Made by a program: the position numbers and the translations under genes. This document shows, in pieces, positions 4,577 to 53,636 of a DNA stretch of 64,000 nucleotides; the first letter of the stretch is position 1; each line of letters begins with the position of its first letter. The stretch comes from a virus. Lineage: Duplodnaviria; Caudoviricetes. The notes below the pieces were generated by a model that saw only the letters and a program-made list of their open reading frames with translations, had not been told where the DNA came from and made no database searches. The DNA lies in the IMG/VR virus record IMGVR_UViG_638275818_000001, positions 32,001 through 96,000 of that record. One strand, given 5' to 3'.

Positions 4577-4634
4577 AAACTATTGATTTATAAGGGCTTA
4601 AAAGGTGTTGAAAGTGTTTAAAATGATTATTTTA
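4577..4634. repeat. Composite site copy 1: 23-bp palindrome + 19 bp + TAAAA-N6-TTTTA
   Basis: aaactattgatttataagggctt at 4577; taaaa-tgatta-tttta at 4619. Confidence 0.65.
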
Positions 4635-4681
4635 TTATGATATAAAAGTTAATTAAAATATAAATAGAAAGAAGGAATATT

Positions 4682-5794
4682 ATGAAGTTTATAGATTTTT
4701 TTAGTGGAGCGGGTATGTTCAGGAAGGGCATGGAAGATGCAGGTCATGAATGTATTGGATATGTGGAAATCCAAAAACAAGCAAGAGAAACTTATGAGAC
4801 CAATTATGATACAACCAAAGAATGGACTTTTCATGATGTTGCTCAATTAAAAGCCGAAGATATACCTAATGCAGATATATGGTGCTTTGGATTTCCTTGT
4901 AAAAACATGAGTACGGCAAATGTAACAACTAGAACTGGATTAAAAGGAGAGCAGTCAGGATTATTTTTAATTATGTGTGATTTATTGAATAAAATGAAAC
5001 GTAAACCTCAAATTTTATTCATAGAAAATGTCCAAGGATTCTCTACTATAAACGGAGGTAGCGATTTTCTTGAAGCATTAGTTAGATTGCATAAGCTAGG
5101 TTATGACATAAAATATGAAATTTCTAGTGCGATGCAATACGACGTGCCACAAAATAGAATTAGGACATATTTAATATGTAAATTAAATAACTATATTAAA
5201 ATAAATGAAGGTATAGAAATACCTAATAAAAAAACAATACATATAAATAAATTAAATATATATGATTTATATAATTACATATCTAAAGAGAATAACAAAT
5301 TTAAAATTAAATATGGTGTAAATGGTGAGATTAGAAATGGAGTGTGTACTGTTTTAAAAGAAAAACGAGAAAATGACTATAATCTTACTTATTTATTGAA
5401 GGATATTTTGGAACAAGAAGTTGAAGACAAATATTATTTAACTGAAGAACAACTAATAAAAGTAAAAAAGATGAAAGGTGCTAAACAAAAAACTTTAAAA
5501 GATGGTCGTATATGGAAAGAAGGAGCTGTACCATTTCCAGATAGTATAGATAAAAATGCACGATGTATTACTCCGTCAGACGGTAGTTTAAATAGAAGCA
5601 CACATATAATATTTGATGGCAAAGGCTATAGGAAGCTTACTATTAGGGAACGTGCAAGACTACAAGGGTTGCCAGACGATTTCACATTTCCTGTCAGTAA
5701 TAGTCAAGCAAGTTTGCAACTAGGTAATGGAGTAGTAGTAAAAGTTATCAAGGAGATAGCAAACAAAGAGATTAATTTAAATATAAGTAAATAA
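4682..5794 (+). CDS. DNA (cytosine-5) methyltransferase
   Basis: Motifs DFFSGAG, GFPC, ENV, QNRIR, RERARLQG, QLGNGV. Confidence 0.93.
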   Translation: MKFIDFFSGAGMFRKGMEDAGHECIGYVEIQKQARETYETNYDTTKEWTFHDVAQLKAEDIPNADIWCFGFPCKNMSTANVTTRTGLKGEQSGLFLIMCDLLNKMKRKPQILFIENVQGFSTINGGSDFLEALVRLHKLGYDIKYEISSAMQYDVPQNRIRTYLICKLNNYIKINEGIEIPNKKTIHINKLNIYDLYNYISKENNKFKIKYGVNGEIRNGVCTVLKEKRENDYNLTYLLKDILEQEVEDKYYLTEEQLIKVKKMKGAKQKTLKDGRIWKEGAVPFPDSIDKNARCITPSDGSLNRSTHIIFDGKGYRKLTIRERARLQGLPDDFTFPVSNSQASLQLGNGVVVKVIKEIANKEINLNISK

Positions 5795-5814
5795 AATTTG
5801 AGTTTTAAATAATT

Positions 5815-5849
5815 AAACCCTAGTAGATACTTATTCCTACTAGGGTTTA
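5815..5849 (+). terminator. Hairpin, likely intrinsic terminator
   Basis: aaaccctagtag...ctactagggttt after the MTase stop. Confidence 0.6.
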
Positions 5850-5908
5850 ATATTATATAAACAAAAGTTTATTGAGATCACTTTGATATAGATACTTAAA
5901 AATATATA

Positions 5909-5969
5909 AAAATTAAATTAAAATATTTTAAAATTAATTGTTGACATTATAAAAATATAGTAGTATACT
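5909..5969 (+). promoter_or_regulatory. Sigma-A promoter with upstream AAAATTAAATTAA box
   Basis: Box 5909; TTGACA 5941; 17 bp; TATACT 5964. Confidence 0.8.
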
Positions 5970-6221
5970 TATAAATGTAGACAGAAGGAAACACTACATA
6001 CGGTAGCAAAATTAAATTAAAGGTGGTGAATAAAATTGCTAAATTATAATTCGCAAAAATTAACAAAAGACAATAAGATTTATATTAAAGACTTTAACGT
6101 AACTAGCAGAAGTCTACCATCTTCTATAAGTGGGAGATGAATGCGTAAATATAACTTGCTTCTATTATTTTTTTTGTGTTAAAATATAATCAGTAGTAAA
6201 TAATATAAATAGGTGATAACA

Positions 6222-6338
6222 ATAAAATTAGATACAAATAATCATTTAGTATTCTTATTACATTATCATCTTGTATTAGTTATAAAATACAGAAGAGAAG
6301 TAATAAAGAAATATATTGAAAATCAAGGAACAAAGTGA
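6222..6338 (+). pseudogene. tnpA: Internally deleted Y1 transposase tnpA
   Basis: Reads IKLDTNNHLVFLLHYHLVLVIKYRREVI joined directly to [13 protein letters not shown] core missing; start codon is ATA. Confidence 0.85.
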
Positions 6339-6348
6339 GGTGAGGGAG

Positions 6349-51268: not shown

Positions 51269-51325
51269 TTATACCAAATTATAATAAGTGTAAATTACAT
51301 AATAATCAAATGGAGGATACATATT

Positions 51326-51991
51326 ATGAAAAAACAAAAAATTTATATCGCAGGTTCACTATTTACAGATAAACAAATTAAACAAAGAATAGAAGAAGAG
51401 GAAACATTAAAAAAAGAATTAGGAAAAGATAATATAAGTATTTATAATCCAATTACAAATGACGAAATTAATGATAAAACTAAACAACCTACATCGCAAG
51501 ATATATTCCTACAGGATACAAACAAGGTGCTAGAAAGTGACATCATCACTGCCGATTTAGATGATTTAGACATGGGTGTAGCTATGGAGTTAGGAATTGC
51601 TTATGGTGTTAATACCATCATAGATTATTTAGAAGAACAATTACAACAAACCATAGATAATATGGATTTGGAGCAAAATAGAACTTTAACAACTGTGTTA
51701 AATATGTTAAAAAAACAATTTCCGTATAAAACTGTATATGCAACTTGTTCTGATATAAGACAAGATGGGCAAAATGAACAAGGTAAATATAAATCATGGG
51801 GACAAAATCAATATGTTATTGGAGGTATTGAAGAAATGGGGGAGGTGTATAGGCATTTTAATGAAGCTGTTGTAGATATGAAAGCTTTAAAAATTGGACA
51901 TATTCCTCAAATTATTAATGCAATCGGAGAAAGAGGGAAGACTATTGGTGAAGCTCTAAGAGATTGTGGGAGTAATATAATGAATAAATAA
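51326..51991 (+). CDS. Nucleoside 2-deoxyribosyltransferase-family protein
   Basis: IYIAGSLF; YNP; D..V..SD; DMGVAMELGIA. Confidence 0.85.
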   Translation: MKKQKIYIAGSLFTDKQIKQRIEEEETLKKELGKDNISIYNPITNDEINDKTKQPTSQDIFLQDTNKVLESDIITADLDDLDMGVAMELGIAYGVNTIIDYLEEQLQQTIDNMDLEQNRTLTTVLNMLKKQFPYKTVYATCSDIRQDGQNEQGKYKSWGQNQYVIGGIEEMGEVYRHFNEAVVDMKALKIGHIPQIINAIGERGKTIGEALRDCGSNIMNK

Positions 51992-52114
51992 TTCACTCAA
52001 CTTGCATATTAATTCTTATATAAAAGTATGTCCTCGGTAAATTGCTTATAACAGTAAAATATAGGAAATGAATATGCAAGTTGATATAAATAAAATTGTA
52101 GGAGGAATATATTA

Positions 52115-52666
52115 ATGGAAAGATATTTTATAGTACAAGAAGAAAGTGCATACGGAAAGGATTTAAATAAATATATAAAAATAGCTAAGTTGCAAAAACA
52201 ATTTATTAATGAATTCTTTAATGAAAACAACATAGAAGCACATAAGTACGAAATATCAGGTAATGGCTCAGTTAATAAACCATTTAATGAAGATGATAAA
52301 AATGAAATTACATTGCGTATTATACCAACAGAGAACGACATGAATAATTTTAATAACATACTTTGTAAAGCCGATGAACATGGATTATGTCAATTTAAGA
52401 AGAGGTCTAAACTATCTAAAGATTTTGCTCGACAATGCATAGATAATAAAATACCTATAAACTTACATTTACCTAGAGTATCAGATTATTTTGAGTCATT
52501 GTCTTATGGACTGTATGGTTGCGGTTACGAACAATTTAAATATAATAATAAGTTATATTTAAAAGTGGAAAGTAGATATTTAAAAGAAAATGATACGCCT
52601 AAAGGGTTTGTAGATATAAAAGCTAGTGAATTTTACTTGGCTAAAGAAGAACAGAAAAATAAATAG
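52115..52666 (+). CDS. Hypothetical protein
   Basis: AGGAGG RBS. Confidence 0.7.
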   Translation: MERYFIVQEESAYGKDLNKYIKIAKLQKQFINEFFNENNIEAHKYEISGNGSVNKPFNEDDKNEITLRIIPTENDMNNFNNILCKADEHGLCQFKKRSKLSKDFARQCIDNKIPINLHLPRVSDYFESLSYGLYGCGYEQFKYNNKLYLKVESRYLKENDTPKGFVDIKASEFYLAKEEQKNK

Positions 52667-52678
52667 GAGGAATACACA

Positions 52679-53275
52679 ATGGCACAATTATATTATAGAT
52701 ACGGGGTATTAAACTCAGCTAAATCAGCAAATTTAATAATGGCAGTACATAATTATGATAAAAAAAATAGAAAGGTTGTAGTATTAAAACCTAAGATAGA
52801 CACTAGATCCAAACCTAATATTGTTGAAAGTAGAGCGGGAATTTCCCATGCATGTATTGACTTCGATAAGAATGAAAATTTATTTGAATTAGTTAATGCG
52901 TTAAATTCTAAAGATATTATTGATGCAGTATTTGTTGAAGAAGTTCAATTTATCACTAAGGAACAGGCTAAACAGTTACATAAAATAGTACATGAATTAA
53001 ATATACCAACCTTGGGGTATGGACTAAAAAATACATATATAGATGGAGAATTGTTTGAAGGAAGCGAAGCTATGCTATTCTACGCAGATAAAATAGAAGA
53101 AATTAAAGATATATGTGAATACTGTAATAAAAAGGCTACTCAAAATTTAAGAGTGGTAAATGGAGAGCCTATATATAAAGGAGAAACAATACAAATAGGT
53201 GATGTAAATAGTAATGTAGAGGAATACTATGTTCCCGTATGTGGTTATCACTATTACCATCCAGAGTTAAAGTAG
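52679..53275 (+). CDS. tdk: Thymidine kinase (type II)
   Basis: YGVLNSAKS; SRAG; EEVQF; YGL; CEYC..VC. Confidence 0.9.
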   Translation: MAQLYYRYGVLNSAKSANLIMAVHNYDKKNRKVVVLKPKIDTRSKPNIVESRAGISHACIDFDKNENLFELVNALNSKDIIDAVFVEEVQFITKEQAKQLHKIVHELNIPTLGYGLKNTYIDGELFEGSEAMLFYADKIEEIKDICEYCNKKATQNLRVVNGEPIYKGETIQIGDVNSNVEEYYVPVCGYHYYHPELK

Positions 53276-53345
53276 ATTGTAAGATAAAATAAAAATAAAT
53301 TAAAGTATAATTATATATTATTAATAATAAAGGAGATGGATATGT

Positions 53346-53588
53346 ATGCAAGAGAATATAGCATTTTGTCCTAAATGTAAGAGAAAAGTTCAATACATAA
53401 TACGAAAAAATATAATAGAGGAATATAAAGGCGTTGAGGTAAATGTAAAAGAAAATATAGGTGTTTGTAGTAAATGTAATAAGGATATTTTCGTAACGGA
53501 ATTAGAAACTGAGAATCTTAAAAGATTATACCAAAAGTATGAAGAAATAACGGGTATTAAAATAAAATCCAAACTTGCAAACCCTTGA
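53346..53588 (+). CDS. YgiT/MqsA-type Zn-finger protein
   Basis: CPKC...CSKC; AAGGAG RBS. Confidence 0.65.
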   Translation: MQENIAFCPKCKRKVQYIIRKNIIEEYKGVEVNVKENIGVCSKCNKDIFVTELETENLKRLYQKYEEITGIKIKSKLANP

Positions 53589-53636
53589 TATATAAGGGTT
53601 TGTGAAACACTAAAACACAATAAAAGAATACTTTTA
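53579..53636. repeat. Composite site copy 3: 23-bp palindrome + 19 bp + TAAAA-N6-TTTTA
   Basis: aaacccttgatatataagggttt at 53579; taaaa-gaatac-tttta at 53621. Confidence 0.65.

Follow-up and report, generated by a model that had tools for sequence, protein, structure and literature searches.

The stretch of DNA analysed here (the window; 64,000 nt) comprises bases 32001-96000 of the 185,683-bp record IMGVR_UViG_638275818_000001, a Clostridium botulinum type C toxin phage/plasmid of the c-st type. Its sequence is identical to that of a C. botulinum type C plasmid-phage record, with phage D-1873 as a close relative, and its GC content is 26%. The window contains the ha-botR-ntnH-bont locus, replication genes, nrdD, topoisomerase genes and dcm; the two ends of the c-st genome carry a 405-bp direct terminal repeat. 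At three places in the window, a two-part element (the joint site) heads a block of genes: dcm, the replication genes and the topoisomerase genes, respectively. Each joint site consists of a 23-nt sequence (the box) and, 19 bp further on, of the dyad TAAAA-N6-TTTTA. Box and dyad start at positions 4577/4619, 11650/11692 and 53579/53621; these coordinates, reported in an earlier note on this DNA, are all correct, each dyad being perfect and the offset 42 bp in every case. Positions are those of the window unless given as genome positions. Four related plasmid-phages (W01 to W04, W01 being the plasmid of strain 1873) were used for comparison.

Anatomy of the joint sites

At site 1, the box (4577-4599, + strand) holds the conserved 17-mer TTGATTTATAAGGGCTT at 4583-4599. 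Its left arm is unpaired and the RNA fold energy calculated for the 23-mer is 0.0 kcal/mol. The dyad (TAAAATGATTATTTTA, 4619-4634) begins 19 bp past the box and lies 47 nt 5' of the start codon of dcm. The box of site 2 (11650-11672, + strand; 17-mer at 11656-11672) has a fold energy of -2.1 kcal/mol and is found in a 700-bp non-coding stretch 5' of the replication gene block. Homology to W01 and W04 begins inside the dyad of this site (TAAAAGTGCAATTTTA, 11692-11707) or 1 bp before it. A sigma-A-like promoter, with TTGACA and TATACT separated by 17 bp and preceded by a AAAATTAAGTTAAAA box, follows at 11758-11786 (+ strand), 50 bp beyond the site. Site 3 stands apart in that its box (53579-53601, + strand) forms a perfect hairpin, AAACCCTTGATATATAAGGGTTT, with a fold energy of -8.2 kcal/mol alone and -14.8 kcal/mol with its flanks. 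The hairpin includes the TGA stop codon of an upstream open reading frame (ORF) of 80 aa and is followed by TTT. The dyad of site 3 (TAAAAGAATACTTTTA, 53621-53636) precedes the next start codon by 34 nt; its right arm is overlapped by TATAAT, an overlap seen at this site only. Homology to W02 stops 2 bp past this dyad.

The three boxes had been described as copies of a palindrome. This holds for site 3, the only one that is a true palindrome and forms a stable hairpin; what is conserved among the sites is instead an asymmetric 17-mer, TTGATNNATAAGGGNTT. The 17-mer has three exact copies in the window and a total of four in the genome, every one of them on the + strand; base composition predicts about 0.005. 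With up to two mismatches, the window has five copies against 1.87 in shuffled sequences. The fourth of the exact copies, located beyond the window at genome 184981, has a fold energy of -1.7 kcal/mol and no dyad at +42. Thus, the phasing announced as invariant applies to the three joint sites, not to every box, as the relatives confirm below. Still, we estimate the chance of finding a dyad at one exact offset in three of four boxes, given the density of dyads in non-coding DNA, to be less than 1e-6. The linkers between box and dyad share only 5 to 10 of their 19 positions. They are not entirely free, however: CAC-N-A recurs directly 5' of the dyad at sites 2 and 3 and in the relatives. Searches with Rfam covariance models gave no match at the gathering score in nine loci, the sole match at site 3 having an E-value of 8.

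Distribution of the dyad and conservation of the spacing

The dyad occurs far beyond the three joint sites. The window has 11 copies where 2.71 are expected, a number that none of 100 shuffled sequences reached. In the entire c-st genome there are 31, compared to 3-13 for each of the spacings 0-5 and 7-15 between the same arms. Corresponding values are 30, 35 and 31 in W01, W02 and W04 (3-14 at other spacings), 34 in SPbeta (0-4 at other spacings), and 37 in an SPbeta-like provirus and 19 in a second provirus (2-6 and 0-4 at other spacings, respectively). Two further large viral records have 12 and 16 dyads, against 5 and 2 for a backwards control. Each of the eight window dyads that have no box upstream (starting at 2304, 5792, 9246, 25514, 27367, 35366, 39974 and 60428) is either located in a non-coding stretch or overlaps a stop codon. 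The central 6 bp are different in all 11 copies of the window and in all 31 of the genome.

Phage c-st is also related to SPbeta in gene content. The single-chain RNA polymerase YonO, the HU-like protein YonN and the YopQ/YopR(MrpR) pair of SPbeta have counterparts in c-st, encoded outside the window (genome 165872-167548, 161183-161470 and 24630-27129, respectively), and the likeness to MrpR was confirmed against solved structures. Primase, DNA polymerase III alpha subunit, dUTPase and structural module genes are also common to the two phages. These homologues place the phage in the wider SPbeta lineage, as a distant relative of SPbeta. The dyad is a motif specific to the lineage of SPbeta/c-st-type phages, present at about 30 copies per genome.

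In SPbeta, the symmetry extends beyond the arms. Alignment of the 27 dyads from the early region (69-133 kb of record AF020713) gives the consensus TYT-N3-TAAAA-N6-TTTTA-N3-ARA, spanning approximately 28 bp, with A present at +19 in 21 and at +21 in 26 of the 27 copies. So organized, the dyad looks like the binding site of a dimer. Dyads are located in short spacers between genes: twelve of the 27 precede a start codon by 19-32 nt and ten supply the TAA stop codon of the upstream gene. We searched the literature for a description of the dyad and found none. Two candidate identities were considered and rejected. In the part of the source available, YonO is said to start at a single promoter 5' of yonK (PMC5467207), which is difficult to reconcile with 34 dyads being YonO promoters. 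Nor is the dyad the MrpR operator, SPBRE, which has a different sequence: SPBRE-like copies in SPbeta read ...ACAAATAATATGTATA..., unlike both dyad and box.

The layout noted 3' of site 2 recurs at several other dyads of c-st, where AAATTAAATTAAA comes next and a TTGACA-type promoter after it; further dyads stand directly before a ribosome-binding site. AAATTAAATTAAA is the commonest 13-mer of the c-st genome (+ strand, 23 copies; - strand, 7) and is usually found about 7-20 bp 5' of the TTGACA-type -35 box of early genes, examples being those at 2330-2345, 9275-9290, 25495-25510 and 35335-35350. It may be the operator of the MrpR-like protein (genome 26023-27129), a c-st counterpart of SPBRE. 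A separate arrangement is seen in the ha33-ntnH intergenic region (39915-39990), where TTTACA and GTTATA boxes make up what we take to be a BotR-type promoter. Within the presumed leader of ntnH, immediately 5' of the ribosome-binding site, is the dyad at 39974-39989, inside which the homology to three relatives ends.

The pairing of the dyad with the box was sought in other genomes. The exact 24-base pattern (box, 19 bp, dyad) was found in four bacterial contigs, from Lachnospiraceae, Paenibacillus, Brevibacillus and Halalkalibacter, and in 11 viral stretches, nine of which belong to contigs of 120-175 kb. This amounts to about 13 distinct joint sites with unrelated linkers. When the gap was allowed to vary between 5 and 35 bp, 15 viral stretches were recovered; the gap is 19 in 11 of these, 20 in one, 9 in two and 29 in one. 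That the spacing has been kept over a large evolutionary distance while the linker has not is the strongest argument for the two parts working together. These data speak against the possibility that the sites arose by chance in AT-rich intergenic DNA or by recent local duplication. The low GC content of the genome favours such an origin, as do the flanks shared by sites 2 and 4 (cca...TTTAAGAG), which indicate that some box copies are paralogues. However, only the N6 spacing is enriched, the 24-base pattern recurs in unrelated hosts, and the linkers and flanks of the three sites differ. The contention of the earlier note that the sites go beyond AT richness and simple duplication is thus borne out, and the likelihood of a chance origin is practically nil. 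A genuine two-part site with constrained spacing emerges, and this constraint argues for factors bound in register.

The dyads lie at boundaries of gene cassettes where related phages differ. To quantify this, c-st was aligned to W01, W02 and W04 with blastn and high-scoring segment pairs of at least 150 bp were retained, which gave 438 block ends. Of these, 27 fall within 20 bp of a dyad, many at its first or last base. A block end within 20 bp is found for 15 of the 23 non-coding dyads as compared to 4.5 for random non-coding positions (none of 2000 samplings reached 15) and to 18 of 51 for control motifs with other spacings. The dcm cassette provides an example. This gene (4682-5794, + strand), encoding a cytosine-5 methyltransferase, has a dyad on either side (4619 and 5792). 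It constitutes an insertion (4665-5771) when compared to the plasmid of strain 1873, in which the two dyads are only 38 bp apart.

Such an arrangement invites the interpretation proposed in the earlier note, in which the dyad is the crossover core of a tyrosine recombinase and the box an accessory-protein site marking the attI-like, active members of a cassette system. The layout of the dyad, inverted arms around a 6-bp centre (5-6-5, or 11-6-11 in SPbeta), is that of dif/lox-type sites and, like these, the dyads lie between gene cassettes; homology blocks begin or end at or inside dyads, and two genes for proteins with a recombinase fold are present, one MrpR/YopR-like (E=6e-11) and one Xer-like (E=3.5e-13). 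Contrary to dif/lox sites, however, the copies have no centre in common, so that partner sites would share no overlap region, and there is no sign of crossover inside the centre: the junction of the dcm insertion is an AT-rich microhomology beside the second dyad, not within it. Indirect evidence comes from SPbeta: in the accessible portion of the study, MrpR binds only SPBRE sites, its ChAP-seq profile consisting of 10 peaks, all at the SPBRE motif and none at dyads (PMC10516654). At site 1, W01 has lost the box and kept the dyad. The comparison with integrons fares no better. Integron R/L boxes have the consensus GTTRRRY, and no boxes of this type, attC-type included, are found in dyad or box; c-st has no gene for an IntI integrase, the only match to IntI4 having an E-value of 0.001 over 59 residues; and the boxes at the genome end have no dyad. 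Finally, because conserved intercistronic signals are carried by every cassette, homology is expected to end at them whatever they do, and the coincidence of boundaries does not by itself show recombination at the dyad. Neither the crossover core nor the attI-like role is sustained by these data, and we consider site-specific recombination at the dyad very unlikely.

The Xer-like gene itself (60894-61847, - strand) is 450 bp away from the dyad at 60428, and nothing links it to the sites. Located where the + strand early genes give way to - strand genes, it is, from its sequence, a candidate for the multimer-resolution enzyme of the plasmid prophage. Other features of the genome are noted in passing. 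The nrdD gene (31385-34321), for an anaerobic ribonucleotide reductase, contains an intein with a LAGLIDADG-like domain, and annotated cas5 and cas6 genes and several IS200/IS605-type tnpA/tnpB genes are present at genome positions 14067-15445, 3772-5672, 16209-18109 and 38349-39437.

The box and its hairpin family

When W01 to W04 were scanned for the 17-mer with one mismatch tolerated, two classes of copies were obtained. Those in the early region (the orthologues of site 3 in W01 and W02, and an additional site in W03) all have a dyad 19 bp further on. The second class is made up of eight near-terminal intergenic copies from the four relatives, often in tandem 86 bp apart; all of these lack a dyad and have a left arm that is unable to pair. 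The spacing put forward in the earlier note is therefore a property of the early-region copies and is not shared by the near-terminal ones. The fourth box of c-st belongs to the same setting: it lies about 300 bp before the right terminal repeat, in a non-coding right end of 1.1 kb (genome 184518-185683) that comprises direct and inverted repeats of CGATACAC, one full and one partial box, and the terminal repeat. This region is a candidate origin or packaging region. In the near-terminal copies of c-st and of its four relatives, the 17-mer is retained in spite of the non-pairing left arms, and three of the four c-st boxes are unable to form a stable hairpin. In the c-st family, then, it is the sequence of the box that is kept, not its fold. 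Site 3 is maintained in W01 and W02, and its copy in W03 has diverged, with both flanks unrelated to c-st. At site 2, W02 carries a different hairpin, AACCCTTATATTAAGGGTT, with the same stem and a shorter loop, also positioned 19 nt from the dyad.

By sequence, the box corresponds to the loop and right arm of a hairpin type, AACCCTTGATNNATAAGGGTT, that is widespread in mobile elements. This type matches no fewer than 119 viral stretches and, among bacteria, at least 120 contigs; all counts of sites given below for this family are among the matches listed. The matches come mostly from Firmicutes but also from cyanobacteria, actinobacteria, Bacteroidota and proteobacteria. With a query of 38 nt from around site 3, 425 phage records were found, in which the first word of the organism name is Streptococcus in 183, Bacillus in 75, Paenibacillus in 70 and Staphylococcus in 40. 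Five genomes searched whole, with one mismatch tolerated, have 1-6 copies each. When the stem was kept and any 7-nt loop allowed, GATNNAT was the loop in about 11 of the 80 matches listed, against 0.2% by chance; this loop and the arm AAGGGTT are conserved across phyla. We know of no common reader of this hairpin, and literature searches with fragments of its sequence returned only unrelated primer and 16S matches.

Most members of the family have the marks of an intrinsic terminator. Among 222 hairpins, 174 are preceded by A; on the other side, position +1 is T in 199 and position +2 is T in 143. In 107 of 156 cases, a gene running in the same direction ends just 5' of the hairpin. The features of an intrinsic terminator (a stem containing GC pairs and a run of T) are present at site 3 and in most of the 222 hairpins, and not at sites 1 and 2. 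The joint site could accordingly be read as punctuation at the RNA level, the hairpin being an intrinsic terminator and the dyad an RNA hairpin, a processing signal or a translational signal in the leader of the next gene, with the distance between the two simply inherited. The stability of the site 3 hairpin and the T residues after it agree with this reading, as do the hairpins that follow tRNA and integrase genes, the location of dyads 19-36 nt 5' of start codons and the dyad in the ntnH leader. Several observations do not. Fold energies are only 0 to -2.1 kcal/mol at sites 1 and 2 and in the terminal copy, and still the 17-mer is kept there, as it is in the near-terminal copies of five phages in which no left arm can pair. 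An RNA stem formed by the dyad would have just five A-U pairs, and the symmetry reaching out to 28 bp in SPbeta fits a site for a DNA-bound dimer better than it fits an RNA hairpin. A gap of 19 in 11 of 15 stretches with unrelated linkers argues for constraint rather than inheritance, and the orientation of the hairpin towards adjoining integrase genes is not fixed. On balance, a role confined to RNA seems unlikely.

Other members are found in surroundings reminiscent of replication origins. An 8-mer repeated at least three times within 180 bp is present near 59 of 200 hairpins and in 24 of 309 control windows. In the genome of Streptococcus thermophilus phage 2972, the primase gene is followed by a non-coding gap that contains the hairpin, beside GACAC-type repeats and a long AT run; we take it that the origin of 2972-type phages was mapped to this gap. 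In SPP1, a variant of the hairpin is found amid repeats like those in 2972. Papers on the S. thermophilus origin were searched for a mention of the hairpin, and none came to light; the portion of one source available states that phage 2972 has a mapped origin, and no more (PMC12570759). Primase/helicase genes adjoin 12 of 224 hairpin sites, site 2 precedes the replication module of c-st, and the terminal copy is embedded in the CGATACAC repeats close to the terminal repeat. In addition, the minimal rolling-circle origin of pC194 (PMC7072734) contains CTTGATAATAAGGGT, which resembles the box, CTTGAT-NN-ATAAGGGT: the two agree at 15 positions, the plasmid being one base shorter in the interval from GAT to ATAAGGG. 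These resemblances are what one would see if the box were a strand-specific origin, priming or nick signal and the dyad an initiator-binding or easily melted partner, sites 1 to 3 serving as secondary origins or as priming sites in front of genes for DNA metabolism. Yet the full CTTGATA of the pC194 origin is found at site 3 only, and the c-st genome has no match to PF01446 (Rep_1) or PF02486 (Rep_trans). Rep_1 was likewise absent from 50 of 50 hairpin-bearing viral records, a search whose control was also empty. The hairpin of phage 2972 is not accompanied by a dyad, iterons are missing from the vicinity of about 70% of hairpins, and some 30 dyads per genome far exceed the number of origins. 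A replication element is, in our judgement, an unlikely explanation.

The remaining surroundings of the hairpin are diverse. In addition to the primase/helicases, the 224 sites have tyrosine integrases (21) and serine recombinases (8) as neighbours. Hairpins occur in both orientations relative to adjoining integrase genes, and some are located just after tRNA genes. No single gene family adjoins the hairpin throughout: the largest cluster accounts for 21 of the 224 sites, and a Pfam scan of 149 left neighbours gave no more than six members for any family. In one viral contig, two hairpins 103 bp apart bracket a tRNA 3' fragment beside an integrase gene; the two appear to be divided between the phage side and the host side of an attachment site. 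SPbeta has a one-mismatch copy, annotated as a stem-loop after yonV, and a two-mismatch copy between yonP and yonR, the interval in which the accessible part of a preprint places the start of packaging (10.1101/2021.11.22.469490). Mimicry of a tRNA anticodon arm or T-arm and a solitary CRISPR repeat were rejected by inspection, since the loop rules do not fit and no arrays are present. An IHF-like reading was also considered. The reverse strand, ATCAAGGGTTT, agrees at 12 of 13 positions with WATCAANNNNTTR, presumably the IHF consensus, but the conservation of CCC/GGG is left unexplained; to our knowledge, Firmicutes have no IHF.

A candidate regulatory boundary module

Altogether, these analyses document the anatomy of the joint site, the enrichment of its dyad, a fixed spacing, conservation in distant phages and a position at the boundaries of genes and of homology blocks. 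The explanation that we favour, tentatively and with appreciable reservations, is that the joint site is a protein-bound regulatory boundary module that heads early gene blocks and acts on double-stranded DNA. The fixed gap, the outward extension of the dyad symmetry, the retention of a 17-mer that cannot fold and the position at early blocks all point to a site on double-stranded DNA occupied by proteins in register. The box is the loop and right arm of a hairpin type found at module borders of many phages and mobile elements, where it mostly resembles a bidirectional terminator or lies amid origin-like iterons. The dyad, exactly 19 bp 3' of it, punctuates the early-gene region and would be bound by a dimeric phage protein, with a second factor on the box held in register with the first. 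Together, the two parts would mark the end of one early transcription unit and the start of regulated expression of the next block. If every cassette carries such signals, these will coincide with the points at which related phages diverge in their genes. What we infer from the arrangement of the sequences is that proteins bind, that the module is regulatory and that its two parts cooperate.

A number of facts weigh against this explanation. The dyad is without a box in 28 of 31 copies in c-st and in all 34 in SPbeta. Conversely, among 109 distinct viral hairpins, a dyad is found at +42 in five and at +91 in one, while 103 have none within 200 nt. As most dyads lack a box and most hairpins lack a dyad, the two parts have independent lives, and their pairing could be an inherited arrangement. 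In W01, the box of site 1 has suffered a deletion of about 7 bp, the dyad being retained, and site 2 is without a hairpin in both W01 and W04. No standard sigma-A -35/-10 pair in register with the dyad could be read at the sites; registers with the box as -35, the linker as -35 or -10, or a dyad arm as -10 were tried and none was consistent. The tight placement of dyads 5' of ribosome-binding sites would be equally expected of a compact promoter or of a signal acting in RNA, and over the whole family the hairpin has the appearance of an RNA terminator. A Pfam scan for DNA-binding candidates among nine ORFs flanking the three sites yielded nothing usable.

Precedents for a module of this kind exist. 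As described in the part of the source at hand, PeSLs (promoter-early stem-loops) are terminator/promoter cassettes of T4-like phages (PMC4122927). Like PeSLs, the joint site is a small intergenic unit in which a stem-loop is followed by a conserved start-of-gene signal, it is repeated among early genes, and its copies lie at points of insertion, deletion or swapping between close relatives. Unlike PeSLs, it has no readable sigma-70-type -35/-10 pair, two of its three stems are unfolded, and it belongs to a different lineage (SPbeta/c-st, Firmicutes). Moreover, PeSLs have a homologous block of 50-60 bp where the joint sites share only 17 + 10 bases, which makes homologous recombination between copies unlikely. 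A second parallel is SPBRE, also a short repeated intergenic element of the same lineage and the target of a phage regulator, MrpR, that has a homologue in c-st. However, SPBRE lies, by our reading, inside early sigma-A promoters and accounts for 10 peaks as opposed to 34 dyads in SPbeta, where aimR alone among the SPBRE promoters has a dyad upstream. The third parallel is phi29, in which a sequence close to the box, CCCTTGATACATAAGGA, is present at 5146-5170 between the annotated p4 binding site and gene 7, that is, in the early/late switch region, 24 nt from the p4 site and, by our estimate, at approximately -44 to -20 of the late A3 promoter. The p4 site is an inverted repeat of A/T tracts bound by a phage transcription regulator, as proposed here for the dyad, but its sequence (CATTTT-N15-AAAAAG) is not of the 5-N6-5 form and its distance to the box is also different. 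We know of no role for the box sequence in phi29. Tentatively, we place the joint site closest in kind to the PeSLs of T4 and to operator-plus-regulator arrangements such as the phi29 switch.

A more far-reaching version of the boundary module deserves mention. Box and dyad might be the halves of a nucleoprotein site dedicated to the SPbeta/c-st lineage that both gates early transcription and serves as a preferred point of exchange for early-gene cassettes, the phage protein on the dyad (recombinase-fold, HU-like or other) pairing with a widely conserved reader of the 17-mer, a sequence present in hundreds of mobile elements from different phyla. We regard this version as quite improbable; if true, it would represent a phage counterpart of the integron platform operating by a different chemistry.

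For the regulatory boundary module as such, the consequences would reach beyond c-st. The dyad marks about 30 gene boundaries in each member of an entire lineage of large temperate phages, and the protein that binds it would reveal a new layer of early-gene control in SPbeta-type phages, the well-studied SPbeta included. A 21-nt hairpin with a fixed loop that occurs in Firmicutes, cyanobacteria, actinobacteria and others, and nearly always within mobile elements, ought to have a reader in common. Lastly, the sites stand at the head of the dcm, replication and topoisomerase blocks and on the borders of cassettes that can be swapped, and so bear on the diversification of the toxin plasmid-phages of C. 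botulinum group III.

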